This document shows, piece by piece, positions 45,516 to 62,403 of a DNA stretch of 64,000 bases. The DNA is from a virus (lineage: Duplodnaviria > Heunggongvirae > Uroviricota > Caudoviricetes > Crassvirales). The stretch is taken from positions 29,013 through 93,012 of the IMG/VR virus record IMGVR_UViG_3300033069_000976; one strand, 5' to 3'. Both the position numbers and the translations under genes were made by a program. Within the stretch, counting starts at the first letter, position 1. Each line of letters opens with the position of its first letter. The notes beneath the pieces were generated by a model. That model saw only the letters and a list, made by a program, of their open reading frames with translations, was not told the origin of the DNA and ran no database searches.

Positions 45516-45521
45516 TTAATT

Positions 45522-46261: not shown

Positions 46262-46349
46262 AACTAGTTGATTATCAATGAGTTCAACACCTCTTCAGCT
46301 TATAAGGCATTAATAAAAACACCTAAAAACTAATAAATCAAACCTTAAA

Positions 46350-46511: not shown

Positions 46512-46525
46512 AAAATCATAATATT

Positions 46526-46738: not shown

Positions 46739-46756
46739 TTACAAAAACAACCTTAT

Positions 46757-46960: not shown

Positions 46961-47125
46961 GGCTGTCTATCAAGACAGATACTTTGGAGAGCAATAGATT
47001 TCCGGTTAGAACTCATAGGGCGGAACCCTTGAAACCTATTAGTAGGGAGTTCTATTTTATACTGGCTTGCAACAGTATGTGTTAAGTGCAAGGCGTTAAT
47101 AATCTATGAGTCCCTGCTTATATGA

Positions 47126-47990: not shown

Positions 47991-48016
47991 ATAGCATTAA
48001 CACTAAAAACTAAAAA

Positions 48017-48394
48017 ATGACAACAATAATTATAATTCTAGCTTTAATTCTTTCTGGTTCTTTATGTTATTATTTATTTATATATAAATTATCCAGAAAA
48101 GAAAAAGAAATAATCAAAGGATGTATTAAACACTATGAAGCTGTAATCCAAATAGCTGAAGTGTCTGATAATTGGGAATACCTAATGACAGTAAATTGTG
48201 TGAATGAAGGTCTCTGTAATTATTTATGGTTTAAAAATATACCCAAAAAATTAAGAAAATGGGTTAAAAGAGTTCCATGTAGTTATAGAAAATTTTGGTA
48301 CATAATACCTTATTATTGTTATTCAAGAGATGAAGCTATTGAGGCTTTACAATACAGGGTAGATAGGATGAAAGAATTACTTCAAAAATACTAA
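48017..48394 (+). CDS. Hypothetical protein (125 aa) with an N-terminal transmembrane helix; paralog of 58691..59002
   Basis: The shared C-terminal motif is EAIEALQYRVDRMKELL versus IIDCLQFRVDKMKKIL. Confidence 0.45.
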   Translation: MTTIIIILALILSGSLCYYLFIYKLSRKEKEIIKGCIKHYEAVIQIAEVSDNWEYLMTVNCVNEGLCNYLWFKNIPKKLRKWVKRVPCSYRKFWYIIPYYCYSRDEAIEALQYRVDRMKELLQKY

Positions 48395-48816
48395 ATATAT
48401 TCCCAAAGTTGTCAGAGTGAGGGAAAAACTACAGTTAAAGACTCTATATTAGAGAACCAGAAACTTCTTAGTTATTAGTCTTAGGGGACAATCAGCTCGA
48501 GATGCCTAAGACGTGCTTAGTGTGAGAATCACTAACAAGGAGAATAAATAGAAATAAACTGAATCAGCTAACATGTAGATGGAAACATCATTAGGGTGAA
48601 GGGACATAGTAATATGTACAGACCAGCTAGACTCTGGAATAGCTAACCAGACAAAAAGGAATTCTTTTCATTAATGAGCCTTTTTTTGACACTAGGACTT
48701 GGAGTTACGAGAAAATATTAAAATGTTGTGGAAAGCTCCAAGCCTTCCCTATCAATTCTCATTAACATTTTAATACTTATTCATATGGTAGACATCAACG
48801 CTCTCATGAGCATAGA
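48395..48816 (+). ncRNA. ORF-free, relatively GC-rich region of about 420 nt with multiple stem-loops; candidate structured RNA
   Basis: GTCTTAGG…CCTAAGAC and TTAGTG…CACTAA hairpins. GC clearly above that of the flanking coding DNA. Confidence 0.3.
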
Positions 48817-49018
48817 CATGGTGTTGTATAAACAATGCCCAAAAAAACAATTTTACAAAGGGATTTTAGTATTAGATATTACAGATGGTACATACGGAGT
48901 AATTGACAGTGTACATGGCAAAATCGCCTATGTACAGTATAAAGATGGAATCCATACCATATCTGTAAATAATCTTCGTCGTCTTGTTGCTACGGATGAT
49001 AGAAGGCGATGGAATTAG
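48817..49018 (+). CDS. Small hypothetical protein (67 aa; the track ORF extends to 48728 but its N-terminal part looks non-coding)
   Basis: Internal ATG with a plausible sequence (MVLYKQCPKKQF). Confidence 0.35.
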
Positions 49019-49037
49019 TCGAAACAAATTGACAATT

Positions 49038-49072
49038 AAAGAGCGTTGGTAGAATAATCAACGCTCTTTTTC
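49038..49072 (+). terminator. Rho-independent terminator
   Basis: AGAGCGTTG…CAACGCTCT followed by TTTTT. Confidence 0.6.
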
Positions 49073-49359
49073 CATCTATTATTGTATTACTGTGTAAATC
49101 AGTAACAAAGAGAAAGGGTACAAAATTAACTGGGCATAGTTGGTATTAACCCAACATACTAAGCTGGTAGTATAAGTGACTATAAACAGTTTACCTTTTT
49201 CTTGGGGCTTATATCTTTGATTATTAGTGAGTTAGCTTACGAGACTAACTTTAAATGAGTCATTCACTGTTAATTCCAGCTTTAGATATAATGGAAACCT
49301 AGGCAATGAAGCAGCTTGATAATCAAAGTATTAGTGCGACACAAATAAAAACTAAACAT

Positions 49360-49671
49360 ATGAAAAAGGTAAAACTTACCAAAGAGAATGAATTTAATCT
49401 CAGAATGCTCTTAATAGGAATAGCTATGGCTTTGCTATTATTACAAAGCTGCAATAAACCAAAATTAAATAATGAGACTATTTATGTCGAATATTTCAAA
49501 AAAGGATATATTATATATCCTGATTATGTATGTTCTGACACTATGATTGTAAGAGATCATATAGGTCTTAATAAAGCTTTGGCTTATTTGGAACAGACAA
49601 ACTCATCATTAGTAGAAACTGATGATGAAATTGACAGTTTATTTCATCAATATTGTATAATTAAACCATAA
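49360..49671 (+). CDS. Putative lipoprotein (104 aa from the internal start; the track ORF starts at 49306)
   Basis: MKKVKLT…LLIGIAMALLLLQSCNKPK signal-peptide/lipobox-like. Confidence 0.45.
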   Translation: MKKVKLTKENEFNLRMLLIGIAMALLLLQSCNKPKLNNETIYVEYFKKGYIIYPDYVCSDTMIVRDHIGLNKALAYLEQTNSSLVETDDEIDSLFHQYCIIKP

Positions 49672-49844
49672 AAACAATGATAAAGTTAATAATAATGATT
49701 TTTGCATATTTTCTTATTTGGTGTGCAATAAATCTAAAACGTAGTGGAACAAGTAAGATTTATTTATTTGATAAACACTGGTGGATACAATTAATATTAG
49801 TATCTATAGGTGGTTTAATTCTACACAATATTAAATAACAATAT

Positions 49845-50090
49845 ATGAGAAATTTTATAATAACCCACGAAAATGTAGATACTGGAGAGTTCTTTTTCAG
49901 TACAGATCATTGTCAAAAGCATAATCTTGGGGATCGCTGGGTTCCATGTACATATGGACCATTACCAGGACATGTAGCTCCAAGACCTTCTCTATCTACT
50001 GGTATTATCAATAATAAAGAAGATTATCTTAAGGTATTTGGTGTAAATAAAAAACAAATTCTTAATCCACAACCTGAATATCAGGCTTAA
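49845..50090 (+). CDS. Hypothetical protein (81 aa)
   Basis: ORF. Confidence 0.4.
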   Translation: MRNFIITHENVDTGEFFFSTDHCQKHNLGDRWVPCTYGPLPGHVAPRPSLSTGIINNKEDYLKVFGVNKKQILNPQPEYQA

Positions 50091-50112
50091 ATAACAATTA
50101 AAATTCAAGCTT

Positions 50113-50808
50113 ATGAAGCAAAGTTATACCCAGATAGAGGGTAAATTCTATCAAGAATGTGATATTATTATGCTATCTACTAATACAGATAGTGTTGTAA
50201 AAAAACAAATATCAACAGGTATATTAGATTATAGTCCTGCTATGATGAAAATGAAAGAAAAAGATTGGGAAAATCAGCATCTCTACTTTATCTCTGATGA
50301 AGAGATTAAAAAAGGTGATAAAGTATATCATTTACCATCTAAAGAAATAGGTGAAGTATTAGAAGTAAAAGATAAAACATTATTTATACAATATCCTTCT
50401 GAACAAGTAATCTGTGTAAAATATAACTGTAAAAAGATAATAGCTACTACAGATAAACTACTAACTTGTAATGGTGTTAAAAGAGAAGGAGAAAGCTGTA
50501 CTTACAATAATAATTGTAAATTTCCTAAATGTCAATTACCAAGACCTTCTAATGAGTTTCTCAAGAAATTCTGTGAACTGGGTGGTATTAATAAAGTGTT
50601 AATTGAATACACAAAATATCAAGAGTATAATATGCCTTATAAAATGTCTTTAAAAATAGCTCCAGATAATACCATCACTTGTAAGCCTATAAGTAAATCT
50701 CATTCAGAATTATGGGATGATGCTTTTAGAGTGCTTTGGAACAGAGATGTTTCTGAAGGTACAAAAGAAGCCATGATTCGTGAAAAGTATAAAATTTCTT
50801 TGAAATAA
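50113..50808 (+). CDS. Hypothetical protein (231 aa)
   Basis: ORF. Confidence 0.5.
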   Translation: MKQSYTQIEGKFYQECDIIMLSTNTDSVVKKQISTGILDYSPAMMKMKEKDWENQHLYFISDEEIKKGDKVYHLPSKEIGEVLEVKDKTLFIQYPSEQVICVKYNCKKIIATTDKLLTCNGVKREGESCTYNNNCKFPKCQLPRPSNEFLKKFCELGGINKVLIEYTKYQEYNMPYKMSLKIAPDNTITCKPISKSHSELWDDAFRVLWNRDVSEGTKEAMIREKYKISLK

Positions 50809-50981
50809 ACTTCTTAAAGACTATTAGTAAAAAGCTCCTATCATGGAATTAATTACTCTTCAGAAAATATAAGTAGGATTATATAGAATTCGTTGATGCG
50901 TGTCGCACAAACTCATGTTTCATATATAATTCACTAATAGTCTTTATTTTCTTTCTTAATCAATTAAAACTAAATTATAAT

Positions 50982-51314
50982 ATGAAATATTTATTCCATT
51001 TACTTGGATTTTTAGTAGCAATTTTTATTTGCCAATGGTCATTTAACCACATTCATGCGTGGGTTGGAGTTGGCTTAATGGTAGTCACTGCATTAATTTT
51101 TATCAATTACTTAATCAATCAAATCAAAAAAACAATGAAAAAAACAAACATGATTTTGATAGTTGCGATACTATCGTTAGTTGCCATATCTTGTGGAACA
51201 AGAGTTGAACCAAATTATCAGGGTGTATTGATGGAAAACTATGGTAAGAATGGTAAAATTGATTTTTTACAAAAATATCGTAACTATGCCGTAGTTACGG
51301 TAAGAAAATTTTAG
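50982..51314 (+). CDS. Small membrane protein/lipoprotein (110 aa; possibly two fused small genes)
   Basis: Two hydrophobic segments; the second resembles a lipoprotein signal (MKKTNMILIVAILSLVAISCG). Confidence 0.4.
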   Translation: MKYLFHLLGFLVAIFICQWSFNHIHAWVGVGLMVVTALIFINYLINQIKKTMKKTNMILIVAILSLVAISCGTRVEPNYQGVLMENYGKNGKIDFLQKYRNYAVVTVRKF

Positions 51315-51367
51315 TGTATGGTGGACTCTCATCCTGTCAAAGGGGTGGGAGTCACTTTACTTAACCG

Positions 51368-51438
51368 GGCTAATTAATCAAGTGGTAAGATAACAGTCTG
51401 CAAAACTGTGTTCACTGGTTCAATCCCAGTATTAGCCT
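51368..51438 (+). tRNA. tRNA-Cys (anticodon GCA)
   Basis: Acceptor GGCTAAT/ATTAGCC with discriminator U73. U8, A14, GG18-19, anticodon loop CU-GCA-AA. T-arm ACTGG-TTCAATC-CCAGT. No encoded CCA. Confidence 0.7.
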
Positions 51439-51454
51439 CTAAAAATATAAAATT

Positions 51455-51769
51455 ATGCAACAGAAAATTGATAAATTACTTAAGATTTTAAGAGAAAGAT
51501 ACATAGAAGAAGAAAAAGTTAATTGTTTAGAAGGAGGGTTTGCAAGTTTTGATAAAGGAAGAGATCGTAGTGATCCTCATTTTAAAATGTGTATTCCTAG
51601 TAACAATGAGAATGGAAGTCTTTTTCAATATGATGAGAAAGAAGATACTCTTTGTGTATGGGGAAGAGGAATAGGACTTGTTTATAAACAAGGGTATTGG
51701 GCTGCTAAAACAGGAGAATCTGGTCCACAGTATATACCAATAGAAATTTTATCACCTGAAATTTATTAA
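51455..51769 (+). CDS. Small protein (104 aa), -EIY family member (…SPEIY)
   Basis: ORF starting 16 nt after the tRNA. Confidence 0.5.
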   Translation: MQQKIDKLLKILRERYIEEEKVNCLEGGFASFDKGRDRSDPHFKMCIPSNNENGSLFQYDEKEDTLCVWGRGIGLVYKQGYWAAKTGESGPQYIPIEILSPEIY

Positions 51770-51786
51770 AACAAAAACAAACTATT

Positions 51787-52050
51787 ATGTTAAAAAAATT
51801 TGATGATGAAACATATCAGTTTTCAACTGGTAGATTCATAACACCCAATTGTGATGTTATTGGTATTGATGAAAATGGTGATTTACATGAAGGGTATGAT
51901 AATATGATGGAACCTAAATTAGAAGATGAAGATGGTACAATAGAGGTTGATCATGATAATACGGATTTTACACCTATTGAAAAACATGAACTTGCTCAAT
52001 ATATGATAAGTTTATGGAGTAAATTATTATTACAAGAACCTCAATATTAA
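51787..52050 (+). CDS. Small acidic protein (87 aa)
   Basis: ORF. Confidence 0.45.
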   Translation: MLKKFDDETYQFSTGRFITPNCDVIGIDENGDLHEGYDNMMEPKLEDEDGTIEVDHDNTDFTPIEKHELAQYMISLWSKLLLQEPQY

Positions 52051-52055
52051 ATACT

Positions 52056-52283
52056 ATGGCAATACTAACTAAAATAGAAGCTCACCGATATGGTGAAAAT
52101 CATCCTAATGGTATTAATATAGGATATAAAAGAGAGTCGAAAATATATGATCCTGAGCCTATTATAGGTGAAAGTTATTTTATTGGCTCATTTGGTTCAT
52201 CTCCTGTAACTGAAATAATATCTAAAGATGATAAGGGATTTGTATTTAAAACAAAAAATTCAACTTATAAAATAGAGTTATGA
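52056..52283 (+). CDS. Small protein (75 aa)
   Basis: ORF. Confidence 0.45.
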   Translation: MAILTKIEAHRYGENHPNGINIGYKRESKIYDPEPIIGESYFIGSFGSSPVTEIISKDDKGFVFKTKNSTYKIEL

Positions 52284-52549
52284 TAACACAATTAACCCCA
52301 GATATAAATGGTAAGAGTATAAACTGTATTATAGGAGGTGAACCTATAAATAACGCAGTGATTGTATATGAGGATTTAAGATATTATATCTTACAAGATG
52401 TTCATAGTGGTTCTTTCCCCCCTACTATAAAAGCAAGTAAATTTGGTAAAAAACTATCTTGGTGTGTAGGAAGAGGTAATAAAGGGGATTTATTCAGAAA
52501 TCAAACAAGTAACATTCAAATTATAAATCAAGAATATGAGCTATATTAA
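52280..52549 (+). CDS. Small protein (89 aa), -E(L/I)Y family (…QEYELY); paralog of 52536..52799
   Basis: Shared DGK.I.C.I…A.IV.E…YYI.Q…SW.V…NIQ..N..YE.Y. Confidence 0.5.
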   Translation: MITQLTPDINGKSINCIIGGEPINNAVIVYEDLRYYILQDVHSGSFPPTIKASKFGKKLSWCVGRGNKGDLFRNQTSNIQIINQEYELY

Positions 52550-52799
52550 AAGTTTAACAACAGAAATGGATGGCAAACACATAACTTGTAAAATAGAAAA
52601 TACAGTAATAAGTGATGCCAGGATAGTATTTGAAGAAGATAATTACTATATAGTACAAAACCTTAAAAATGGTTCTGATTGTAATGAGAAACTTGGATAC
52701 AAATACAGTTGGGTTGTTAGTGATGGGACTCCATATGCTATAGAAACCAATAGTGTAACTAATATTCAATTGTTAAATTCTGATTACGAAATTTATTAA
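52536..52799 (+). CDS. Small protein (87 aa), -EIY family (…SDYEIY)
   Basis: Paralog of the preceding gene; overlaps it by 14 nt. Confidence 0.5.
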   Translation: MSYIKSLTTEMDGKHITCKIENTVISDARIVFEEDNYYIVQNLKNGSDCNEKLGYKYSWVVSDGTPYAIETNSVTNIQLLNSDYEIY

Positions 52800-53082
52800 T
52801 TATGATAACAGATCTTATTTACTGTCCTGAATGTGATGTTTGGGAAGTAGAGTCACATATACATAAACCAATTTTAATTAACTAAAAACTAGGAAGCTAT
52901 GTCATTAAGAACATCAGGTGGAGTTTTTTCAAGAAGAAAAACAGCTCTACATTATCTGCAAAACCAGTTAAAAACAGGTCAAAAACCTTCTAAAGAAGGT
53001 CCAGTTCCTTTAACTGATAAAGATACAGAAAGGATTAAAAAAGAAATAACAACTTTACAATCACGAATCTAAAACATTTACC

Positions 53083-53289
53083 ATGCCAAAAAATCGTTTG
53101 ATAATCAGCTTTTGGGATACTACTCCCTCAAAACACAAAATTTACAATGAATCCATGAGATGTACATCTGAAGCAGGGGCTGATAAAATCATAGCCCGTA
53201 GACCAGATAAAAGTATGTCTCATGCCAGATATTTCGATAACACTGGACAGGAGATTGTATATAATTTTAATCACTTAGATCCTCAATAA
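53083..53289 (+). CDS. Small protein (68 aa)
   Basis: ORF followed by a hairpin plus T-run at about 53326..53355. Confidence 0.4.
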   Translation: MPKNRLIISFWDTTPSKHKIYNESMRCTSEAGADKIIARRPDKSMSHARYFDNTGQEIVYNFNHLDPQ

Positions 53290-53325
53290 ACAAATATATA
53301 TAAAATAATATAGGTTCAGGTGGTA

Positions 53326-53355
53326 GGGGAGGGAAGAAATTCTCTCTCCTTTTTA
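53326..53355 (+). terminator. Rho-independent terminator
   Basis: GGAGGGAAG…TTCTCTCTCC followed by TTTTT. Confidence 0.5.
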
Positions 53356-53744
53356 AAATATAAATTATGAGAAACTTACAACTTTGGTACATCAGACATT
53401 TTAAAATTATTAACATCAAGAAAGCTAATCAATTACATTTAAAACATTTTCGTAATATATATGGAAATGGTATAAATCATTTGAATTGCAGATCTTTATG
53501 GGTAGATAAACAAAATAGAGTGTACAGAGTTCAACAATTATTAATAACTAAATCTATTTGATATGGAACATTTTTTCAAAATAGTAGATAAAAGAGATGG
53601 GGAAAGTATTTATGATTCAAGAACTCCTTATCATACTGAAGCAATAGCTCTTGAACAAGGGGAAGAATTGCGTAGAGAATTAAGAGTATCTTCTGTAAAT
53701 TATAAAGTAATAGCTGAACCTGCTATGCAGGAAGCTTAAAATAA

Positions 53745-54045
53745 ATGGTAATCGCAGACACTTCTAGAGAGGTGATTAGAAGAAAGGGGTTCGACTCCCC
53801 TGTCCTCCACAATAGCTATGGCTAGTATTGCCAAGTCCTATATCCTTGAGTAAGATATAGGCAAATTAATTGGGGGACATTTGGCACTTGATTCTAATAT
53901 TACGACTAGGAGAGATTATCAGTAAACCTAAAAGGCAGAGTAATCTCCTTCAAAAGGTCAGCTATGAGAATAGCTGCCTAATTTGCGAAGTAATTCCTAC
54001 GAAACTGGGATTAAACCCCTCATCATTTGGTGAGGGGATTTTTAT
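53745..54045 (+). ncRNA. Candidate structured non-coding RNA (about 300 nt) beginning with the tRNA-like element and ending at a strong intrinsic terminator (54014..54045)
   Basis: ORF-free and GC-richer than coding. Several stem-loops (CCTATATC…GATATAGG; GGAGAGATTA…TAATCTCC). Terminator CCCCTCA…TGAGGGG followed by TTTTT. Confidence 0.35.
53785..53809 (+). other. tRNA 3'-fragment-like element: T-arm AGGGG-TTCGACT-CCCCT, acceptor 3' strand GTCCTCC and discriminator A. No matching 5' half is present.
   Basis: Canonical G53, TTCGA, C61 and an acceptor-like 7-mer. No GGRGGRY partner within 80 nt upstream. Confidence 0.4.
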
Positions 54046-54071
54046 CATTTCACCAATAAATTAACATAAAA

Positions 54072-54398
54072 ATGAAAACAATGTTTTTCAACTTTACAGA
54101 AGGTAAAGAAGTAAATCCTTTAGAAGGGATTAAGAAGTTCTTTATTAACCCTATTAATCCCAAATTATATCTCAAACTAAAAATTGAGAAAATTTGTGAG
54201 AGTATTAAACCTCATTACGGTTTTGATAGGGGATTACCTGTATTTATATATCCTTTAGCAGCATTAGGTTTGGAAACATGTACTGTTTCTTTTGCCACAC
54301 CTACTAATGGAATGATAATTACTAAAAGAGGTGCTATCTTGTTTCATATACAAGGTGAATTTTTGGTTGTAGATTCGGTTTTGGATAAGGTTTGTTAG
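54072..54398 (+). CDS. Hypothetical protein (108 aa)
   Basis: ORF followed by a terminator at 54409..54448. Confidence 0.45.
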   Translation: MKTMFFNFTEGKEVNPLEGIKKFFINPINPKLYLKLKIEKICESIKPHYGFDRGLPVFIYPLAALGLETCTVSFATPTNGMIITKRGAILFHIQGEFLVVDSVLDKVC

Positions 54399-54408
54399 TT
54401 TTCAGTGT

Positions 54409-54448
54409 ACCCTCTCCTTCTTTTAATTAGGAAGGGGAGGGTTTTTAA
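54409..54448 (+). terminator. Rho-independent terminator
   Basis: ACCCTCTCCTTC…GAAGGGGAGGGT followed by TTTTT. Confidence 0.6.
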
Positions 54449-54459
54449 ATTTTAAAATT

Positions 54460-54744
54460 ATGCAAATAAATGATATAGTTGTATGTTTACCTGGGTTTAA
54501 TAACTCAGATACAGATAAAGGAAAGCTTTTAAAAGGAGGTACAGGTTATAAAGAAGGTCTTATTGTTAAAATAAGAACAGTTGAGGAAATAATAATAAAC
54601 GAAACTTCTCCTATTATTTGGACAGATTGTGGAAGAGGTATATGGGGACAAGCTGTAAGACCTGCTACAGCTTATGAGATACAAGGTTTTAAAAAAGGTA
54701 TTACATACATAAAAAATATAAAATATGAGCCAGAATATTATTAA
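54460..54744 (+). CDS. -EIY family small protein (94 aa; …YEPEYY)
   Basis: ORF; first gene of the tandem array. Confidence 0.5.
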   Translation: MQINDIVVCLPGFNNSDTDKGKLLKGGTGYKEGLIVKIRTVEEIIINETSPIIWTDCGRGIWGQAVRPATAYEIQGFKKGITYIKNIKYEPEYY

Positions 54745-54973
54745 TATACCAATAGATACATTTTTACCTTATAGATGTGTTACCTGGGATATTAGAACAG
54801 ATAATGCTTACAGGCATTGGCGTAAAGAAAAATATAAGATATATGGTGAAGCAACATATGGTGATGAAGAGTATTACTGTATAGAAGAACCAGATTATCC
54901 TGGTGAGAATTATTACATGGTAAGAAAACAAGATTTGTTACCTTTTAGAGAGTATGCATATGAAATATACTGA
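54725..54973 (+). CDS. -EIY family small protein (82 aa; …YAYEIY)
   Basis: ORF; its stop is embedded in the junction module. Confidence 0.5.
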   Translation: MSQNIINIPIDTFLPYRCVTWDIRTDNAYRHWRKEKYKIYGEATYGDEEYYCIEEPDYPGENYYMVRKQDLLPFREYAYEIY

Positions 54974-55196
54974 TTTAATTCCTGGAAAGTATTATTATAC
55001 TGATTGGGTAGATGGTGAAGGTTATAAATATATATTACAATATACTCCAAATAAGTCTGATAATATAGATTTAACACATAACAAATTTTATAAGGCAAGT
55101 GGTTGTTTTGAAAGAACTGATGTAGTATTTAGAATTGCTACACCTTTTGAAATACAATGGTTACAAATGTGCCAGAAAAAAAAACAAATATATTGA
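54954..55196 (+). CDS. Small protein (80 aa; MHMKYTDLIPGKYYYTDW…QIY), tandem paralog of 55213..55471
   Basis: Start inside the upstream …YAYEIY-stop; shared N-terminal YTDLIP..YYYT motif. Confidence 0.5.
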   Translation: MHMKYTDLIPGKYYYTDWVDGEGYKYILQYTPNKSDNIDLTHNKFYKASGCFERTDVVFRIATPFEIQWLQMCQKKKQIY

Positions 55197-55212
55197 ATTT
55201 AAAGAGCCTATT

Positions 55213-55471
55213 TATGAACTATACTGATTTAATACCAGACCAATATTATTATACAGAGCATTGGACACATTACCCTTATATATTTAAAGCTGATAATTTA
55301 GAACATTGTATGCATTTAGGTGTTAGAGATAAATTATTAGGCTCTTCTGCAAATTTTTCAAAAGTCACTAAATACAGACTTGCTACTTATCAGGAGATAG
55401 TTTGGTTTGAATTGTGTAAGAAAGCAGGTAAATATATTGAGAAACCCATTTTTGAAGAAGAAATTTATTAA
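55213..55471 (+). CDS. -EIY family small protein (86 aa from MNYTDLIP; …FEEEIY)
   Basis: Internal ATG chosen by the paralogous N-terminus; the track ORF starts at 55157. Confidence 0.45.
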
Positions 55472-55473
55472 TT

Positions 55474-55659
55474 ATGTATTATATAAAATGTAATTATGCT
55501 TGGAATAATCGAGCAATAATAGGGAAAATATATGAAGTTGAGGATTTAAATACGAATAGTGGGTTTTCTTGTTATACATGGGCTAAGCTTTTAGAAAAAC
55601 AATATCCTGTAAATAAAAATGCTTTTGAAATAGTATTATTAGAAGAAGAAATATATTAA
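55474..55659 (+). CDS. -EIY family small protein (61 aa; …LEEEIY)
   Basis: ORF. Confidence 0.45.
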   Translation: MYYIKCNYAWNNRAIIGKIYEVEDLNTNSGFSCYTWAKLLEKQYPVNKNAFEIVLLEEEIY

Positions 55660-55783
55660 CTTATGGGAGAGAGACAGAATATAAAGAAGCTAATCTATGC
55701 GGAACAAGCTAAATTTCCTGCTGATAAAGAGAAAATAGCAGAATTAAACAGGTTATTAAGAAAACATCCACCTCTTATAGAGG

Positions 55784-56056
55784 ATGAAAAAAGGTATAAC
55801 TTTACAAACAGATTATATGAAAGAAAATCAATTTAAAATAGGTGATACTATAACTATACATAAAGAACCAAGTATGTGGTCTTCTGAATTATCCGATAAA
55901 AATCCAAAAAAAGGTATAATATATCCTTGGAAAGGCATCATAGAAGGATTAAAAACAACTGAAATAGGACTAAATGGGTTAATCAGTGGTTATGGTTTTT
56001 CTATGGATCATATAAAAGATTACACAATAAATTCAAATACATATGAAATCTACTAA
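55784..56056 (+). CDS. -EIY family small protein (up to 90 aa; …NTYEIY). The true start may be internal (MKENQF…).
   Basis: ORF. Confidence 0.45.
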   Translation: MKKGITLQTDYMKENQFKIGDTITIHKEPSMWSSELSDKNPKKGIIYPWKGIIEGLKTTEIGLNGLISGYGFSMDHIKDYTINSNTYEIY

Positions 56057-56219
56057 ATTTCACTATCTTTGTTCAGAAGAAGTAAGATTGGATAAAGATG
56101 TAAGGCTATTAATATTAAACCCTATAATGGGAAGAAACTATGTAGTCCCATATTATAGTAATAGTCCACCTAAATCAGGTAAGATTCTATATGGTTTTAA
56201 AACAAAAAGACTAAAATGA
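56043..56219 (+). CDS. Small protein (58 aa; MKSTKFHY…), start embedded in the upstream YEIY-stop
   Basis: ATG inside tATGaaatctactaa; ATGA overlap with the next gene. Confidence 0.35.
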   Translation: MKSTKFHYLCSEEVRLDKDVRLLILNPIMGRNYVVPYYSNSPPKSGKILYGFKTKRLK

Positions 56220-56404
56220 AATATTATAAAGTATTAAAAAGCTGGGATTACTATTCGGAAGATTCTGAAGAAATTCTTTTCAGCTATATAAAAGGAAGTT
56301 ATATAACAGAAGATACTTTTCCCGAAAGGAATTTTGGTAGTTATGGAAGTTTTGAGGATTACTATGAAGAAGTTAAAGAAATTCCTTACGAAGAAATATA
56401 TTAA
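56216..56404 (+). CDS. -EIY family small acidic protein (62 aa; …PYEEIY)
   Basis: ORF. Confidence 0.45.
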   Translation: MKYYKVLKSWDYYSEDSEEILFSYIKGSYITEDTFPERNFGSYGSFEDYYEEVKEIPYEEIY

Positions 56405-56419
56405 ACAAACAAACCATAT

Positions 56420-56671
56420 ATGAAAAAAGAAAATGAAATCCCAATTGGTACAAGAGTAATGTTAAACCCTACATCTAGATGGGTAAATAGTGGATCATTA
56501 AAACCAACCAGTAAAAATCCTTTAAATATAAAAGGGACTATAGATGGTTATAATAATAATGATGATACATATGAAGTTGAGTGGGATAATTGGGGACTGA
56601 ATTCTAATTACAAAATAGGAGAAGACCTAATTATATTAGGTGAAAATTTAAATCAAGAATTTTATTATTAA
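56420..56671 (+). CDS. -EIY-like small protein (83 aa; …NQEFYY)
   Basis: ORF. Confidence 0.45.
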   Translation: MKKENEIPIGTRVMLNPTSRWVNSGSLKPTSKNPLNIKGTIDGYNNNDDTYEVEWDNWGLNSNYKIGEDLIILGENLNQEFYY

Positions 56672-56689
56672 TAATTAAAAACAAACAAA

Positions 56690-57160
56690 ATGGCAACAAA
56701 AGCAAAAAACATGGAAGTAGCAACTGCAACACAATTTACATTGGAAGAAGTTCCAAATTTACTTCAGCAGGTAAATGATCAAATTAAAAAACTTAAAGGA
56801 GATAAAGAGAGGGCTGCTAAGATAACCACCCCTTTGGGAGCATTCGGGATAATTTCCGATATTAAGGATCCTGCTCGTTTAATGGATGCTTATGCATTCA
56901 TAACAAGGAAAGCGGCTGCTTATGCAGAATTTACCCCTGTATTTCAGGAAGTAGATAGCTTAACTCCTATTAAAGCTTTTACTGAAGGTGGTCATTCTTT
57001 AAAGCAATGGCAGGATGAAATCATGGCTCAGTACAGGGAAACTACTTTTGAATCTAAACTGGCTAAGTTGACCGAAGCTAAGAGGATTTTGGAAGAGAAC
57101 CTAAGCAGGGAGCAAAAGTTTGTTGCTTCTATGCAAAACATTAAAGATTTGTTTGCATAA
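56690..57160 (+). CDS. Hypothetical protein (156 aa), compositionally distinct, terminator-flanked insert within the array
   Basis: ORF plus a downstream hairpin/T-run at about 57177..57214. Confidence 0.5.
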   Translation: MATKAKNMEVATATQFTLEEVPNLLQQVNDQIKKLKGDKERAAKITTPLGAFGIISDIKDPARLMDAYAFITRKAAAYAEFTPVFQEVDSLTPIKAFTEGGHSLKQWQDEIMAQYRETTFESKLAKLTEAKRILEENLSREQKFVASMQNIKDLFA

Positions 57161-57176
57161 TCTTCCATTTTTAATA

Positions 57177-57214
57177 ATAGCCCTCACTTAATTGTGGGGG
57201 CTATTATTTTAAAT
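57177..57214 (+). terminator. Rho-independent terminator
   Basis: ATAGCCCTCAC…GTGGGGGCTAT followed by TATTTTAAATTTTTT. Confidence 0.55.
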
Positions 57215-57239
57215 TTTTTATCATTGAATTTGAATAATT

Positions 57240-57494
57240 ATGAAATATACTAAAGAGTATTATGGAAAAAATAAAATAGTTTTACAGATTGGTCTTGATG
57301 AGGAATTAAGACAATTGGCTTGTGAGTTATTAGGTATAAAATCTTTATCAAATTTATATGCTGGCATGTGTATTAATCTAGGGATTGGGCTACACTGTAA
57401 TGAGGAATGGTATAGGGAGCATGATTATATTATTATATCAAAAGAAGAATTTTATCAACATCAAAATATAAATAAAGCATATGAAATATATTAA
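57240..57494 (+). CDS. -EIY family small protein (84 aa; MKYTKEYY…KAYEIY)
   Basis: ORF; the junction module with the next gene lies at 57478..57494. Confidence 0.5.
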   Translation: MKYTKEYYGKNKIVLQIGLDEELRQLACELLGIKSLSNLYAGMCINLGIGLHCNEEWYREHDYIIISKEEFYQHQNINKAYEIY

Positions 57495-57753
57495 AGGTAC
57501 TTATTACCATATTATTTATAAGTATGTAGATCCATTTTTAGCTTTTTGTCTAGAGGATAATGACAAAAAGATATGGGCAAAAATTGTAAATTTTGACGGA
57601 TCTACTGGTCCAATTCAGGAATTGATTTCTTTTGTAGAAGCTAAATTGGCAACTCCTAAAGAAATAGCTTATTTTGAACATATACAAGCAGGGAATGAAA
57701 CATCTTTTGAGGGGTTTAATTATAAAAATGATGAATATGAAATACTGTATTAA
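57481..57753 (+). CDS. -EIY family small protein (90 aa; MKYIKGTYY…DEYEILY)
   Basis: ORF. Confidence 0.5.
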   Translation: MKYIKGTYYHIIYKYVDPFLAFCLEDNDKKIWAKIVNFDGSTGPIQELISFVEAKLATPKEIAYFEHIQAGNETSFEGFNYKNDEYEILY

Positions 57754-57982
57754 AAGAGTAGGAAATATTTCAGAAATGAATGAATTTTTTACAAAATTAA
57801 ATGATAGAAAGTACTTTTCTATTAATTCTTCTTTTGAAGATGAGTATTATTATTATCATTATCCTTTATGTAATAACAAATGTATATTCCTAGGAAAACA
57901 AAAAGGTTATAAAGAAATATCCTTTGAAGATTTTAAAAGAGTTTATAATCAAAAAGAAATCATAGAATATGAAATATATTAA
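57737..57982 (+). CDS. -EIY family small protein (81 aa from MKYCIKRV; …IEYEIY)
   Basis: Internal ATG embedded in the upstream YEILY-stop; the track ORF starts at 57674. Confidence 0.45.
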   Translation: MKYCIKRVGNISEMNEFFTKLNDRKYFSINSSFEDEYYYYHYPLCNNKCIFLGKQKGYKEISFEDFKRVYNQKEIIEYEIY

Positions 57983-58274
57983 AGGAGATTATATAGTCTT
58001 ATTAACTACTTGTGTTGGAGTAGAAGATATTTGGCGAAGTATACCAATAGGGTATGTTTACAAACTTACTAGAAACTTTGATTGGTTTGCTTTATGTATA
58101 GAAAAGAATATGAATGGAAATTTTGATGGTTGGTCTATAAGTAATTCAAAAGAGAATAAAATATCACATGGTAAAATGACAGTTAGGGCTGCTGCACTAT
58201 ATGAAATTGAGGACTATATAAGAGCTGGTAGACCAGTAAAAGCGAATCAAATAAGGGCATACGAAATTTATTAA
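57969..58274 (+). CDS. -EIY family small protein (101 aa; MKYIKGDY…RAYEIY)
   Basis: ORF. Confidence 0.5.
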   Translation: MKYIKGDYIVLLTTCVGVEDIWRSIPIGYVYKLTRNFDWFALCIEKNMNGNFDGWSISNSKENKISHGKMTVRAAALYEIEDYIRAGRPVKANQIRAYEIY

Positions 58275-58293
58275 ATAATTAAAACTTAATATC

Positions 58294-58542
58294 ATGAAAT
58301 ATCAACTTGTTTATCAATCTTCTAACTACAAAGATTTTCCTAAACCAAAAGTAGGCGAACCTGGGTTTTTTAGAAAACTTGCTAATAATCGTAATAATTG
58401 TGAATTACAAGATGCTAAAAAACGTATTAGAAAGAATTTACATGGTGGGTATAATTATACACCATCCAGAGCTTATTTTAACTTTATTCAAAAACATACT
58501 GTAAAAACCTTTTCTGGTATTTTATGGAATAAAAATATTTAA
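58294..58542 (+). CDS. Small basic protein (82 aa; MKYQLVYQ…)
   Basis: ORF. Confidence 0.45.
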   Translation: MKYQLVYQSSNYKDFPKPKVGEPGFFRKLANNRNNCELQDAKKRIRKNLHGGYNYTPSRAYFNFIQKHTVKTFSGILWNKNI

Positions 58543-58690
58543 CCATGTTAGTTTTAATTATATTAATAGCTATTATAGTTGCTACCATTATTGTATTTGA
58601 ACCAAATATAGACATTACTACTGAAAAAGAAGTACTCTTATGGTTCAATAATAGTGGTTATAAAAGGAAATTTATAAAATTGTTTAATTT

Positions 58691-59002
58691 ATGACAAAGA
58701 AAGAAATCTTAACAAAACTAATTAGAAAATATAACTTAGTTTTACGTGAAATAAAACCTGTTAAAGACTATAGAGAGATACTTAGAATTGTTGATAATCA
58801 TAATTGTGGAATGGGAATATGTACTGTGACTGATGCCAATTTTAATGTAAGCATATATAATAAAGCATGGGTAAATAGAGAAAAAACAGATAATTTCTAT
58901 TGGCATACTTATCCCAATGAGGTAACTAGTAAAGCTGAAATTATTGATTGCTTACAATTTAGAGTTGATAAAATGAAAAAAATACTAAAAACCTGTAAAT
59001 GA
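58691..59002 (+). CDS. Hypothetical protein (103 aa); paralog of 48017..48394
   Basis: Shared C-terminal motif LQFRVDKMKKIL. Confidence 0.45.
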   Translation: MTKKEILTKLIRKYNLVLREIKPVKDYREILRIVDNHNCGMGICTVTDANFNVSIYNKAWVNREKTDNFYWHTYPNEVTSKAEIIDCLQFRVDKMKKILKTCK

Positions 59003-59232
59003 AGAGTAAAGAACAGAAGTTAATAGATATATGTTTTTCATTATGTATATCTCAACTTATAGATATGAAGAAGTATCCCGAAATATGGAAAAATAAATCT
59101 ATACCAGAAGTAGCTGAATGGATTACTGATCAATTAAAACAATGTGGTTTTGAAACTTTTCCAATAGGTTCTTCATGGGGAGTATTAATAGAGGATAAAG
59201 ATTTACTAAAAAAATTAAAGGGGGGAATATGA
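58999..59232 (+). CDS. Small protein (77 aa)
   Basis: ORF with a 4-nt overlap. Confidence 0.4.
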   Translation: MKSKEQKLIDICFSLCISQLIDMKKYPEIWKNKSIPEVAEWITDQLKQCGFETFPIGSSWGVLIEDKDLLKKLKGGI

Positions 59233-59837
59233 ATATAACATTAGAAAAATACATAAAAGTACTTAATGCAGGATTTTCACTGGATATACTGTATTTGTTA
59301 AAACTTATTAAAGATAAAGTAGATATAACAGATGCTATCCTTCTTCCTAAAATAGGAGCTATTAACCAGATGTTATTAAGAAAACAATTAATAACTGAAG
59401 ACAATCAGGTTACTATGTCTGGAGAAGAGTTATTGTCTTATATGGAAGACGATGGAAACCCTAAAGAGTTAGTTAAGAGGTTGAAAACCAATGATTTTGA
59501 GAAGTGGTGGGTTACTTATCCTGCAACAAACATGTTTGTTTATAAGAATAAGACCTTTAAAGGTACTCAAAGTAAAAGAGTTAAGAAGCTGGATTGTAAA
59601 CAATTGTTTAACAAGTACATTAATGAAGGTTTTACTGCTGATGATATAATAAATGCTACTGAATATCATATTCAAATGGCAAAGGATTTATCTTTTAAAA
59701 AAGGAGAAAATCAGATAAGTTTTATAGGTAATTCCTATAGATATTTAAATGAGAAGATGTTTCAACCTTTTATTGAGATTTACAAACAAAATATTAACAA
59801 ACAACCTGAACAGGTTGGAAATGCTGTAGATATATGA
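59229..59837 (+). CDS. Hypothetical protein (202 aa)
   Basis: ORF. Confidence 0.5.
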   Translation: MNITLEKYIKVLNAGFSLDILYLLKLIKDKVDITDAILLPKIGAINQMLLRKQLITEDNQVTMSGEELLSYMEDDGNPKELVKRLKTNDFEKWWVTYPATNMFVYKNKTFKGTQSKRVKKLDCKQLFNKYINEGFTADDIINATEYHIQMAKDLSFKKGENQISFIGNSYRYLNEKMFQPFIEIYKQNINKQPEQVGNAVDI

Positions 59838-60127
59838 AATATACAATAGAATATCTAAAAAGACACCCAGTAGCTGTTAGTTGTGTAACTGAGGAACAAT
59901 TTTTAAAAGTTACTAAATTATTAGAATTATCTTTTGCTGGTAGAACAGATTATTGGGAATCTTACAAAGAAAGAACTAAGGTTAGTTACACTTTTAGGAC
60001 TGGTGGACCAATTCCTCATCCAATAGGAGATGATTGCTATGGTTCTAATTTTGATGGGTTTGATATTATATCAGCAGAAACACTTTTTTTAGATAATCAA
60101 ATTTTTGAAAATTATGAGATATACTAA
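59834..60127 (+). CDS. -EIY family small protein (97 aa; MKYTIEYL…ENYEIY)
   Basis: ORF. Confidence 0.5.
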   Translation: MKYTIEYLKRHPVAVSCVTEEQFLKVTKLLELSFAGRTDYWESYKERTKVSYTFRTGGPIPHPIGDDCYGSNFDGFDIISAETLFLDNQIFENYEIY

Positions 60128-60347
60128 AGATAATATAAACGGAGTTACTTTTAGAGTAGGAGAGCGAGGTACTGCCATATACATAATAGATCCTAATTAT
60201 AAAGATACCAGAAGCTTGTCAAGAGTAAGTGGACATTCTGTAGAAAGTATATTACGAGAATTAAATAGTAATAACTGGATTGAAGTTATACAAGTTGATG
60301 GGGAATGGGTAAAAGGACAAAAATTTTTAGAACCTGAAATATACTAA
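60105..60347 (+). CDS. -EIY family small protein (80 aa; MRYTKDNI…LEPEIY)
   Basis: Start embedded in the upstream NYEIY-stop. Confidence 0.5.
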   Translation: MKIMRYTKDNINGVTFRVGERGTAIYIIDPNYKDTRSLSRVSGHSVESILRELNSNNWIEVIQVDGEWVKGQKFLEPEIY

Positions 60348-60348
60348 T

Positions 60349-60576
60349 ATGTTAACAAAAAAAGATATAGGTAAGAAAATAGTTATGTTTAGAAAAATAG
60401 AAGACAAAGACTGGGGAATGATTAGTAAAATAAAAGTAAGATGTAAAGTAGGAGAGCCTGTTACACTCAAACATATAGCAATAAATAACCAATTTAGTAG
60501 TTTACACACAGATAAAGACGGTTATTACCCTGCTCATTGTTTTAAATTATTTGAAGAACCTTACGAAATTTATTAA
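60349..60576 (+). CDS. -EIY family small protein (75 aa; …EPYEIY)
   Basis: ORF. Confidence 0.5.
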   Translation: MLTKKDIGKKIVMFRKIEDKDWGMISKIKVRCKVGEPVTLKHIAINNQFSSLHTDKDGYYPAHCFKLFEEPYEIY

Positions 60577-60578
60577 TT

Positions 60579-60782
60579 ATGGAAAGATTTAAAAGAATAG
60601 ATAAGAGTATTTCTGCTCATTGTTGTTTTGCATATTCAATAGTAGATACCAAAGATGGTCTTGAAGATTTTGGAAAACCAGAAGATAATTACTGGAAAAC
60701 AACAGTATGTGAGTGTTTTGAAGAAGAACATGCTGATATGATTGTTAAAGCTTTAAATGAATTATATGAAAAAGAAATATGA
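60579..60782 (+). CDS. Small protein (67 aa), Cys-containing
   Basis: ORF. Confidence 0.4.
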   Translation: MERFKRIDKSISAHCCFAYSIVDTKDGLEDFGKPEDNYWKTTVCECFEEEHADMIVKALNELYEKEI

Positions 60783-60960
60783 TCTTTTACTTAAAAAGCT
60801 AAAAGAAGATAAAAAAATGTGGATGTCCAGATTAACTACTACTTGTGATGTACATCTAGTAATGGATAAAGAATTTAAAGCTTATACAGAAGAGCTTATT
60901 AGTAACATTATAAGAGTTAATAATCAAATCTATACTCTTGAAAAACTTACAGAAAAATGA
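60757..60960 (+). CDS. Small protein (67 aa)
   Basis: ORF. Confidence 0.4.
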   Translation: MNYMKKKYDLLLKKLKEDKKMWMSRLTTTCDVHLVMDKEFKAYTEELISNIIRVNNQIYTLEKLTEK

Positions 60961-61379
60961 AAAAATTAGAACCTAGGATAATTTGTAATAGAATACAAAC
61001 TCCAGATGGTACAATATTAATATCTCACCATAGACATGATTATCAGACTTATACAGATAAGAATGGATTAGAGTATATGGTAGATGGGGGACAAGATTAT
61101 TTAAGAAGAAATGTTCATTATGAAGCTCCTCATACTGAATTATCAGTATATGATACAGCTCTTTTTGAAGAAATAAGGAAAGTATTTCATAGAGGAGGAA
61201 GAGGAAAAGATGGTAGACAACCTTTAACTTGGATTCCTTTAGATCAGATGTCTGATGAATGGGTAAAAGCTTGTATTGTATATAATAAAGAAAGAGGGTT
61301 AAATAAATCCTTTGCAAGTAAAATGTATAGAAAAGAACTTAAATATCGTAAAGAAAACAATATAAAAATTCAAGAATGA
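60957..61379 (+). CDS. Hypothetical protein (140 aa)
   Basis: ORF. Confidence 0.5.
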   Translation: MKKLEPRIICNRIQTPDGTILISHHRHDYQTYTDKNGLEYMVDGGQDYLRRNVHYEAPHTELSVYDTALFEEIRKVFHRGGRGKDGRQPLTWIPLDQMSDEWVKACIVYNKERGLNKSFASKMYRKELKYRKENNIKIQE

Positions 61380-61517
61380 ACATTCTACAATACATAGAAG
61401 AAGAAAAATACTATCTTAAAGACACTAAAGAAGGAAAAAGATGGTATTCTACTAAAAACAGAGGTTTATATGATAAACCAGCTCCTGTATTTACTCATGA
61501 AGAATTAATTAAAAAAT

Positions 61518-61736
61518 ATGAAAAAGAGTCAAATAAAGAATAAAATCCTAAATTTATCAGAAGATGAGGCTAAAGATATGTTACAGAGAGTAATAGAAGA
61601 TAGTTATACAATTGTTCAGTGGCCTGAAAGTCAGGATTTAATGGAAAAATCCTGGTTTAAAAAGGAAGCTGTTCTTGATATAAGTCAGATTCATGGCTCA
61701 AGTGCCTATTTTGTCCCAACTTTTAAAATTCTTTAA
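61518..61736 (+). CDS. Small protein (72 aa)
   Basis: ORF. Confidence 0.4.
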   Translation: MKKSQIKNKILNLSEDEAKDMLQRVIEDSYTIVQWPESQDLMEKSWFKKEAVLDISQIHGSSAYFVPTFKIL

Positions 61737-61737
61737 T

Positions 61738-62403
61738 ATGAAATTAACAATAATACAAACACCCGATTATATATTGGGTGTAGATAAAGAAGCTATCTTA
61801 CGTGATGAAGATATTCACATATCTCCAATAAGAGAAGGGATAATGAATACCTTTATTATAGATAATAAGATAGGAAACGATAATTATAAATCAAAACCAT
61901 TAGATAGAAAAGATTGCTGGAAAGTAATAGCACATACTCCTCTTAATGGTAATAAAGGATTAGAAGGAGTTTGGTCGTTACCTGAGTTTGAATCTCTTGA
62001 TTACGAGTTTGATAGGAAATTTATGTTCCCTAAAATATCTCCTATAATTGAAAGATTGAGAAAAACAGACTATGAGGCTTTTTTAGATATAGGTGGCAAA
62101 TTATATGATGCTTGTTTTGATTTTTACAAATCTTCAGGTAGTTATACTGAGGAAGATATGAGGAAAGCTATTGTAATGGCTGTTACAAGTAAAACAGATT
62201 TTATCCCTGATATGTGTAATGAAATTATACAATCACTAAAACCATTTCCAATAGAGTTTGAAGTGGAGATGGAGGAATATGGTTATGAACCTGTTATTGG
62301 AAAATTTCCTAATTATGAAGTTAATCCAAATCCAAAATTATTTAGACCAAAAATACTTAACAATATTATTCAAGGTAAATATATTTGGAAGCAATTAAAC
62401 TAA
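61738..62403 (+). CDS. Hypothetical protein (about 221 aa from MKLTIIQT; the track ORF starts at 61693)
   Basis: ORF. Confidence 0.45.
   Translation: MKLTIIQTPDYILGVDKEAILRDEDIHISPIREGIMNTFIIDNKIGNDNYKSKPLDRKDCWKVIAHTPLNGNKGLEGVWSLPEFESLDYEFDRKFMFPKISPIIERLRKTDYEAFLDIGGKLYDACFDFYKSSGSYTEEDMRKAIVMAVTSKTDFIPDMCNEIIQSLKPFPIEFEVEMEEYGYEPVIGKFPNYEVNPNPKLFRPKILNNIIQGKYIWKQLN

Follow-up and report, generated by a model that had tools for sequence, protein, structure and literature searches.

The window analysed here is a stretch of 64,000 nucleotides (nt) from a virus of the Crassvirales (IMG/VR record IMGVR_UViG_3300033069_000976, positions 29,013 to 93,012). Its plus strand carries, at positions 51455-60576, a tandem array of small genes, many of which encode predicted proteins ending in Tyr-Glu-Ile-Tyr (YEIY) or in a close variant. 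The original prediction, made by reading the sequence, had described about 18 such genes as one diversified family with a common C-terminal peptide. By combining the listing of open reading frames (ORFs) with an independent scan, we found 34 plus-strand ORFs in this interval. Tyr is the last residue in 19 of them, and 14 have the strict ending [Y/P/E]-E-[I/L]-Y. The motif therefore persists after starts and stops are re-determined, and is real. Outside the interval, an E[IL]Y ending occurs in none of 64 ORFs and a terminal Tyr in two of 64. Given the amino-acid frequencies of the window, an E[IL]Y ending is expected with a probability of 5.8e-4 per ORF, which corresponds to a binomial P of ~6e-37. 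Because of this value and of the complete absence of the ending from the 64 ORFs outside, AT-richness fails as an explanation.

The predicted core of the tag is Y-E-I-Y with a free carboxylate, within a wider consensus of two hydrophobic residues followed by N-x-[Y/P/E]-[E/Q]-[I/L/V]-[Y/F/W]-COOH. One array member differs by a single residue (YEILY, 57481-57753) and three have weaker variants, each kept in orthologues (PEYY, 54460-54744; EFYY, 56420-56671; EPQY, 51787-52050). The tagged proteins are acidic, with a median pI of 5.5, and their untagged neighbours are basic, with a median of 8.8.

Genes of the array

All genes described in this section lie on the plus strand; L-numbers denote related contigs or loci and P-numbers database proteins. 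The first tagged product (51455-51769) has 104 amino acids (aa) and ends in ILSPEIY, with SPEIY kept in the L002, L005 and L020 orthologues. The following 87-aa protein (51787-52050) has the weak variant QEPQY; its L005 orthologue ends alike, and L002 carries a different cassette with the end EPEIY. Two paralogues come next, namely 52280-52549 (89 aa, NQEYELY), within whose Tyr-Glu codons lies the next ATG, and 52536-52799 (87 aa, NSDYEIY), whose YEIY end is found in three of three database homologues.

The gene at 54460-54744 encodes a 94-aa protein with the variant tail YEPEYY, also present in L014/L020, and belongs to a sub-type of the RxATxxE superfamily described below; by eye, it resembles the last repeats of P0026 and P0028. 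Its neighbour at 54725-54973 (82 aa, YAYEIY) is missing from L002 and, through a 14-nt overlap, provides the ATG of the gene at 54960-55227. The latter is a tagged member of the LIPGxYY...RxATxxE family, but is frameshifted. Alignment shows a run of nine A at 55176-55184 in the window against eight A (or A3GA4) in the L005 and L002 orthologues. Because one extra A shifts the frame, the ORF reads as 54960-55196 and stops at 55196 in KKKQIY, and the orthologous tail KEPIYELY lies out of frame at 55213-55227. The A9 run may reflect slippage, a true pseudogene or a mistake in the assembly. One of the 19 Tyr endings, KKKQIY, is thus a homopolymer frameshift product.

Downstream of this gene lie 55214-55471 (85 aa, FEEEIY), which has the LIPGxYY...RxATxxE domain, and 55474-55659 (61 aa, LEEEIY), which is present in L005 and not in L002. 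The ORF listing and BLAST further support 55784-56056 (90 aa, SNTYEIY) and 56216-56404 (62 aa, IPYEEIY). The 83-aa product of 56420-56671 ends in the variant NQEFYY, as does its L020 orthologue, and the gene is truncated in L002. It is the sole array member with PHROG matches (phrog_11307 and others), all of unknown function.

The next gene, at 56690-57160, encodes an untagged protein of 156 aa that belongs to phrog_2574 (function unknown) and is conserved beside or within tag arrays. On its 3' side, a terminator-like hairpin at 57173-57208 on the plus strand, with 15 pairs followed by a T run, appears to end the first transcription unit of the array. Beyond the hairpin, 57240-57494 (84 aa, NKAYEIY) shares a BLAST cluster with 59834; 57481-57753 (90 aa, RxATxxE domain, DEYEILY; P0013) has orthologues that end in YEIY; 57737-57982 (81 aa from MKYCIKR, IEYEIY) is missing from L002 and present in L007/L020; and 57969-58274 (101 aa, IRAYEIY) is an RxATxxE sub-type (hhalign probability 34%) that resembles the repeats of P0021 and P0033. 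The last three genes are 59834-60127 (97 aa, FENYEIY), in whose place L002 has another cassette, 60114-60347 (77 aa, FLEPEIY), a member of a family with the pattern KDNI-G...LN-G-W, and 60349-60576 (75 aa, EEPYEIY), supported by the ORF listing and BLAST.

Selection on the peptide and turnover of gene cassettes

We compared 57 distinct tails, taken from the window and from related contigs, at the codon level. In the last two codons, positions 1 and 2 are the same in all tails and the third positions vary: the final Tyr is TAT in 33 tails and TAC in 24, Ile is encoded by ATA, ATT or ATC, and Leu by CTA or TTA. Since the variation sits at third codon positions, selection acts on the peptide. The tag is under peptide-level purifying selection, as had been proposed from the synonymous differences within the window. 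Selection for tRNA identity at termination is ruled out by the exchange of ATA with ATT/ATC, which are read by different tRNAs, by the use of both CTA and TTA, and by the replacement of Tyr with Phe or Trp.

At seven junctions in the window, the ATG of the next gene lies within the Tyr-Glu codons (TATGAA), giving an overlap of 14 nt and, in one case, of 17 nt. At such overlaps, synonymous changes in the upstream gene leave its tail unchanged and rewrite the downstream N terminus (MKY to MRY, MKS or MSY; I to T at residue 4). The MKY starts thus follow from the tail, and the tail does not follow from them. These N termini are common only to overlapping genes and are otherwise free to vary. No overlap is present in 12 of the 19 window tails, which keep the tag and typically read TACGAAATTTATTAA, and arrays elsewhere with intergenic gaps of 2 nt (L049) keep it as well.

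The close relatives L002, L003, L005 and L014/L020 have the same region with different cassettes. Where homology between L002 and the window is interrupted, the break coincides with a gene boundary, and cassette content differs among the window, L002 and L005. L002 has a chain of eight genes joined by 14-nt overlaps, compared with four genes at the equivalent place in the window. Directly 3' of the hairpin at 57173-57208, a 'ghost' tail, LNNYEIY followed by a stop, occurs on the plus strand without any gene body (57230-57253) and overlaps the ATG of 57240; the 25 nt 5' of this ATG match the 3' end of an L002 gene. The ghost tail is a deletion remnant relative to L002. As TATGAA supplies the next start and the cassette breakpoints fall at junctions, the tag-encoding junction probably also favours, as a side effect, the turnover of cassettes and the coupling of translation.

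A further difference between these phages concerns a gene of 254 aa with a ParB-like PHROG match (phrog_12305, E 1.2e-13), found at L002 4152-4916 and also in L003, L004, L005 and L014. It is missing in the window between 52800 and 52899, where ~100 nt are left.

Unrelated carriers, their spread and genomic setting

To characterize the proteins that bear the tag, we removed the last five residues from 134 tagged proteins of eight loci and the database. They fell into 38 BLAST clusters, and profile comparison separated at least six or seven unrelated groups. The two largest families (A5 versus A6) gave an hhalign probability of 2% and most other pairs stayed below 20%; among the 10 largest clusters, only RxATxxE sub-types were linked, weakly, at 52% and 34%. 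These data contradict the view that the array is one diversified family. Clear paralogue pairs in the window are only two by BLAST, 52280/52536 (39% identity, E 4e-18) and 54960/55214 (37%, E 3e-11). Both had been named in the original prediction, together with the runs at 57240-58274 and 59834-60576, whose members are mostly unrelated by BLAST.

The largest family combines an N-terminal beta region, L-I-P-G-x-Y-Y, with a helix, R-x-A-T-x-x-E-I-x-W-L-x-x-C, followed by G-K-F-I/V-P. In the window it comprises 54960, 55214 and 57481, and 57969 and 54460 are sub-types. When tagged proteins were searched against curated collections, no Pfam match reached the cut-off, NCBIfam returned no match, and PHROGs gave nothing except for 56420-56671. 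Searches of the three collections with the neighbouring proteins yielded nothing informative either. One tagged protein of 130-133 aa (L049 260-661 and L028 1274-1666; MKAYISCP...DADIFVL...E...A...GK.LY) looks to us, by eye, like a nucleoside 2-deoxyribosyltransferase-like or DUF4406-type protein. If this assignment holds, the tag can also sit on enzyme-like domains.

A search of 1.84 billion representative proteins with the largest-family profile returned 571 matches at E ≤ 1e-3; a 7,296-aa match (P0022) was discarded as a spurious hit to fibronectin-type-III-like repeats. Among the proteins found in this way, larger ones carry two to four tandem copies of the domain, with no tail between or after them. 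Overall, the repeat proteins P0021, P0025, P0026, P0028, P0033, L019 1707-3203 and L066 5091-6257 have 340-650 aa and two to four copies of array mini-domains, and none has a Pfam match. Similar Lys-rich segments close several of them. A second domain (RRYPIGT...W-x-x-I) behaves likewise, being single and tagged in L049 and L028 and repeated and untagged in L066 5091-6257. Since tandem copies occur without it, the domain of the largest family needs no tail, and at least one domain evidently folds independently of the tag.

The AlphaFold2 model of 55214-55471, built from 83 aligned sequences, has a mean predicted local distance difference test (pLDDT) score of 78. Residues 11-16, 20-25 and 54-56 form strands and 59-71 a helix, and the segment 72-80 is well placed; fold searches returned no match. 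The last five residues reach a pLDDT of ~73 with a deep alignment and less than 50 with a shallow one, and DSSP assigns a strand to them in neither case. The spacer before the tail varies in length; 60114, for example, has 14 aa inserted here, and P0008 has an indel. Together with the untailed repeats, these results weaken the earlier suggestion that the tail is the conserved final beta-strand of one fold.

Retention of the tag in related phages had been an expectation of the original prediction, and was confirmed for every family that we followed: in addition to the three homologues of 52536, all 17 database homologues of the largest family (family A) and all 18 of the KDNI-G...LN-G-W family (family B; 60114, with the end [Y/P]EIY) end in the tag. 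To quantify the conservation, we relied on 83 stand-alone members of family A of ~90-105 aa with pairwise identity of at most 50%. Tyr occurs at position -4 in 75% of them, Glu at -3 in 70%, Ile at -2 in 81% and an aromatic residue (Tyr, Phe or Trp) at the end in 92%; ~90% end in Y-[EQ]-I-[YFW]. The exceptions to the terminal aromatic residue are mostly one residue short or long. A terminal aromatic position that is nearly fixed is typical of motifs that are read with their free carboxylate.

The ending recurs in hundreds of proteins of many other uncultured phages. Tag arrays occur in at least eight phage lineages, with a G+C content (GC) of 24-35%. They lie on a 64.6-kb contig with an AAA ATPase and PolA (L016/L023), on a 78-kb contig with GroEL, RNR (ribonucleotide reductase) and PolA (L018), on a 98-kb contig (L021), and in the metagenome loci L024 (from a 180-kb contig), L028, L037, L049 and L066. 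A metagenome scan with a narrow, exact pattern returned 44 stretches of 24-35% GC, 15 of which carry three or more tagged ORFs on the same strand. Conservation of the tail extends further in L028 and L049, to [I/V]-I-N-x-Y-[E/Q/S/P]-I-Y. A narrow pattern had one match in 185,579 representative genomes, a multi-domain protein of 601 aa with a single RxATxxE domain (L022 3886-5691), near which there are no tagged genes. L022 (MOYB01000010.1) is a 27-kb scaffold of 29% GC from the metagenome-assembled genome of Candidatus Caenarcanum bioreactoricola (Melainabacteria). It could be a prophage or a mis-binned phage contig, and says nothing firm on the host. Alignments or DNA patterns were needed to find related loci, as the single-protein queries 57969 and 56690 detected none in viral contigs. 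With P0099 and the repeat protein P0033, tblastn gave no match in 50,697 phage records. A full-text search of the available library returned no relevant paper on YEIY or on shared C-terminal tags of phage early proteins.

The untagged 156-aa protein recurs with the arrays. Homologues with 18-47% identity lie inside or beside the arrays of L018, L021, L023, L024, L028 and L066, and also in the close relatives L002 and L014/L020. Every array with enough flanking sequence, in at least eight lineages, encloses or adjoins such a homologue. In the 20 kb of L018, it is the only BLAST-detectable protein in common with the window; this stretch also holds P0099, a member of the RxATxxE group at the profile level. 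With phrog_2574, six of seven homologues give a match at E ≤ 0.01 (1.5e-8 for the best), the window copy one at only E 0.0012. The protein is probably helical, judging from its sequence. PDB sequence searches with it gave nothing meaningful, and neither it nor two distant homologues had a tblastn match in the 50,697 phage records.

The gene for the major capsid protein (29532-31082, minus strand) matches PF23898 (Crass_capsid) over nearly its full length, with 92.5 bits (cut-off 27) and an E of 2.7e-26, which identifies the phage as crAss-like by capsid family; its product is only 24-25% identical to those of the nearest cultured relatives. Megablast of the array against the 50,697 phage records gave no match, and as the protein searches of the same records were also empty, there is no cultured phage to serve as a model. 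The minus strand carries large structural genes up to ~44 kb, and the plus strand carries small genes from ~45 kb onwards. Shine-Dalgarno motifs precede six of 82 gene starts and the leaders are A-rich at positions -13 to -10, -6, -3 and -2. This pattern suggests a host that probably does without Shine-Dalgarno-based initiation and fits a Bacteroidota-type host as a candidate.

Terminator-like hairpins are in excess at 44000-62000 of the window (16 observed, 5.4 expected), and no promoter motif was identified there. Plus-strand terminator-like sites at 45522, 51324-51353, 54016-54037, 54409 and 57173-57208 seem to split the small-gene region into a number of transcription units. A tRNA-Cys (GCA) gene at 51368-51439 lies immediately 5' of the first tagged gene and is itself preceded by the hairpin at 51324-51353. 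Elsewhere in the window, a 1032-aa ORF (35521-38619, minus strand) has Hom_end and LAGLIDADG homing-endonuclease matches in its middle, at residues ~315-386. As it lies at the head of the structural module, we take it to be a putative intein-interrupted large terminase subunit; no terminase family match was obtained for it. Two related minus-strand ORFs at the boundary of the two gene modules (42641-43078 and 43529-44068) share the motifs W+DI.GYEG.Y.VSN.G and NHKD..K.NN...NLEWV, and are presumably, by eye, HNH/NUMOD-type homing endonucleases. A small plus-strand gene at 47126-47566, whose product ends in KDISSMFL, has relatives at L002 1405-1806 and L014 445-840. Its L002 orthologue has a precomputed match to PF26820 (Phage_T4_Y00F); family matches in the early region are otherwise very few.

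A common ending as a possible docking signal

The results reported above show that the tag sits on unrelated protein families, is conserved across distant phages and is genetically linked to the gene of the 156-aa protein. We tentatively favour the explanation that the YEIY tail is a portable C-terminal docking or sorting peptide for one common putative reader, although we give it somewhat less than an even chance. It is preferred because the carriers are unrelated, the peptide is under purifying selection, at least one domain can do without it, and it stands nearly always at the chain end. Among the functions that had been proposed at the outset, the same evidence speaks for a shared recognition tag. 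The original prediction had not noted the 14-nt overlaps, the gain and loss of cassettes, the conserved 156-aa neighbour or the distribution beyond this phage. The array would then be a hypervariable accessory-gene region encoding many unrelated small, mostly acidic proteins with a common C-terminal peptide. Each variable domain would perform its own job, most likely in host takeover or anti-defence, and the common tail would plug all of them into one shared receptor or pathway. On the basis of genetic linkage, the best candidate for this receptor is the 156-aa phrog_2574 protein encoded within the arrays.

A more specific version is possible but doubtful. In it, fast-evolving target-binding mini-domains are plugged by their tails into phrog_2574 as a hub that imposes a common fate on them or on what they bind. 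This fate might be loading into the virion for injection, destruction of the bound host defence proteins, or assembly into a multivalent complex equivalent to the tandem-repeat proteins.

Several observations weigh against a docking peptide. No recognisable peptide-binding domain was found in the 156-aa protein by Pfam, PHROGs and PDB sequence searches, and its linkage to the arrays could be plain synteny among related phages. In family A the distance between tail and core is fairly constant, at 31-39 residues; this, together with the pLDDT of ~73, would allow intramolecular packing of the tail in that family. Finally, in a few members of family A the aromatic is followed by another residue (IFN, IWN), which speaks against the free carboxylate being strictly required.

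The steady distance and the confidence of the modelled tail would suit a structural or oligomerisation role, in which a terminal strand packs on its own domain or, in a donor-strand-like or head-to-tail fashion, on a neighbouring subunit; the RxATxxE domain itself might even be the tail-binding module. Positions -5 to -8 favour Ile, Leu and Asn, which is strand-like, and tagged single domains have untagged tandem counterparts, as if the tail replaced a covalent neighbour. We nevertheless consider this role unlikely, as at least six or seven unrelated families bear these four residues, the repeat proteins contain the domain, presumably folded, with no tail, the spacer varies in length, and neither AlphaFold2 model has a DSSP strand in the tail.

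Equally improbable in our estimate is a virion-loading signal, by which the tail, read by a capsid or scaffold protein, would direct its small carriers into the procapsid for injection with the DNA as a diversified anti-defence payload. This idea has the closest precedent in logic, the capsid targeting sequence (CTS) of T-even phages. The CTS of IPI, IPII, IPIII and Alt is N-terminal, comprises ~10 residues, is read by the scaffolding core and is removed by the prohead protease. The T-even internal proteins are described as small, highly diverse and fast-changing, as countering host defences, as having only a short CTS in common and as encoded at a polymorphic locus (PMC3012670). In a similar way, the window proteins are diverse (38 clusters), share only a short peptide, and belong to cassettes that are replaced between close relatives. 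Unlike the CTS, the array tag is C-terminal, takes up the final four to eight residues, the carboxylate being free, and has no sequence similarity to it.

Encapsulin targeting peptides provide a C-terminal parallel, being short extensions on unrelated proteins that are read by an HK97-fold shell, and the phage has a crAss-type, HK97-like capsid protein. However, these peptides are rich in Gly, Ser and Leu (GSLxIGSLK-like) and their cargo genes adjoin the shell gene, whereas the array consensus is Y-E-I-Y and the array lies ~20 kb from the capsid gene, on the strand opposite to the structural genes and within the small-gene module. The tail has no similarity to known targeting peptides, L023 has further tagged genes just 3' of replication genes, and ~19 cargo species would be unusually many. 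In addition, the tagged proteins are acidic and internal proteins that are co-packaged with DNA are typically basic; the acidity may thus speak, weakly, for cytoplasmic inhibitors over co-packaged proteins.

We are no more inclined to see in the tail a proteolysis tag, acting either as a C-degron that times protein life or as an SspB-like adaptor tail that brings targets to a host AAA+ protease. A hydrophobic or aromatic extreme C terminus is indeed known from C-degrons and adaptor tails of bacteria, one fate for many unrelated proteins would suit a degradation signal, and the carriers are small acidic proteins of an early-type module. Like the ssrA and SspB tails, the array tail is a very short C-terminal peptide that would confer one fate on unrelated carriers. 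The array tails, however, end in I-Y and not in A-L-A-A or an Ala-rich sequence, and are equally unlike those of MuA and SulA. The window has no evident protease or adaptor gene, and long-term conservation across phages of probably different hosts would demand a very conserved host reader.

An origin at the level of nucleic acid or translation is less probable still. The junction TATGAAATAYAYTAA would in this case be a recombination linker for exchanging cassettes or a site of termination and reinitiation without Shine-Dalgarno motif, and the peptide a by-product or a nascent-chain effect. The seven junctions with an ATG inside the Tyr-Glu codons, the eight-gene chain of L002, the homology breakpoints at junctions, the ghost junction kept without its upstream gene and the A-rich leaders all point in this direction. 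They are outweighed by the restriction of variation to synonymous sites of the upstream frame, at the cost of altering the downstream protein, by the 12 window tails and whole arrays such as L049 that keep the tag without overlap, and by the conservative nature of the substitutions (Y/F/W, I/L/V, E/Q; Leu as CTA and TTA). A junction role leaves the conservation of the peptide unexplained. Chance or an annotation artefact, for which the 28-31% GC of the region and the homopolymer accident behind KKKQIY could be invoked, has a negligible probability given the binomial P, the absence of the ending from the 64 outside ORFs, the motif kept in homologues and the arrays on contigs of 33-35% GC.

The docking peptide was also compared with other chain-end signals. 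PTS1 (-SKL), the Hsp70/90 -EEVD read by TPR domains, the tubulin/EB1 -EEY read by CAP-Gly, PDZ ligands and the DegS-activating outer-membrane-protein end -YxF resemble it in standing at the chain end of unrelated carriers with a hydrophobic or aromatic last residue, often after acidic ones. None of them is known to operate in this form in phage-infected bacteria, and the scanned window proteins revealed no TPR, PDZ or CAP-Gly domain. The SSB tip (DDDIPF-COOH) and the acidic, Phe-ending tails of T7 gp2.5 and gp4 are likewise aromatic ends after acidic residues by which several proteins bind one partner. The array tail differs in having no Pro at -2, Glu or Gln only at -3, and an N/I/L-rich instead of acidic segment at -5 to -8, and none of the tests made here identified a carrier as an SSB or replisome protein.

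By inspection of the translations, with no predictor run, the tagged proteins have no obvious N-terminal signal sequence, which makes a role like that of outer membrane proteins (OMPs) unlikely. An OMP beta-signal or DegS ligand was rejected as signal peptides were not seen and the periodicity is wrong, and a precursor of ribosomally synthesized and post-translationally modified peptides in view of the folded bodies of 60-105 aa. None of the C-terminal systems compared appears to share the YEIY sequence or a defining feature beyond position. Terminal address tags on unrelated proteins are known; judging from the literature and family searches described above, the YEIY ending seems to be a new form of them.

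Should the tail serve in docking or sorting, it would define a class of phage accessory proteins that is not otherwise annotated, with hundreds of sequences in dozens of families that lack Pfam, PHROG-function and structural matches. A peptide of four to eight residues could then be used to obtain the single reader, which would make part of the 'dark matter' in the genomes of crAss-like and allied phages directly testable. Proteins of host takeover and anti-defence would become recognisable by their ending, which would also offer a very short portable tag for engineering such phages. Were phrog_2574 in addition the hub for these tails, this would represent a new principle of protein sorting or adaptation in phage-infected bacteria, used by many uncultured phages of 24-35% GC. 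The dual-coding junction and the turnover of cassettes around it provide a clear example of how phage accessory arrays get rebuilt.

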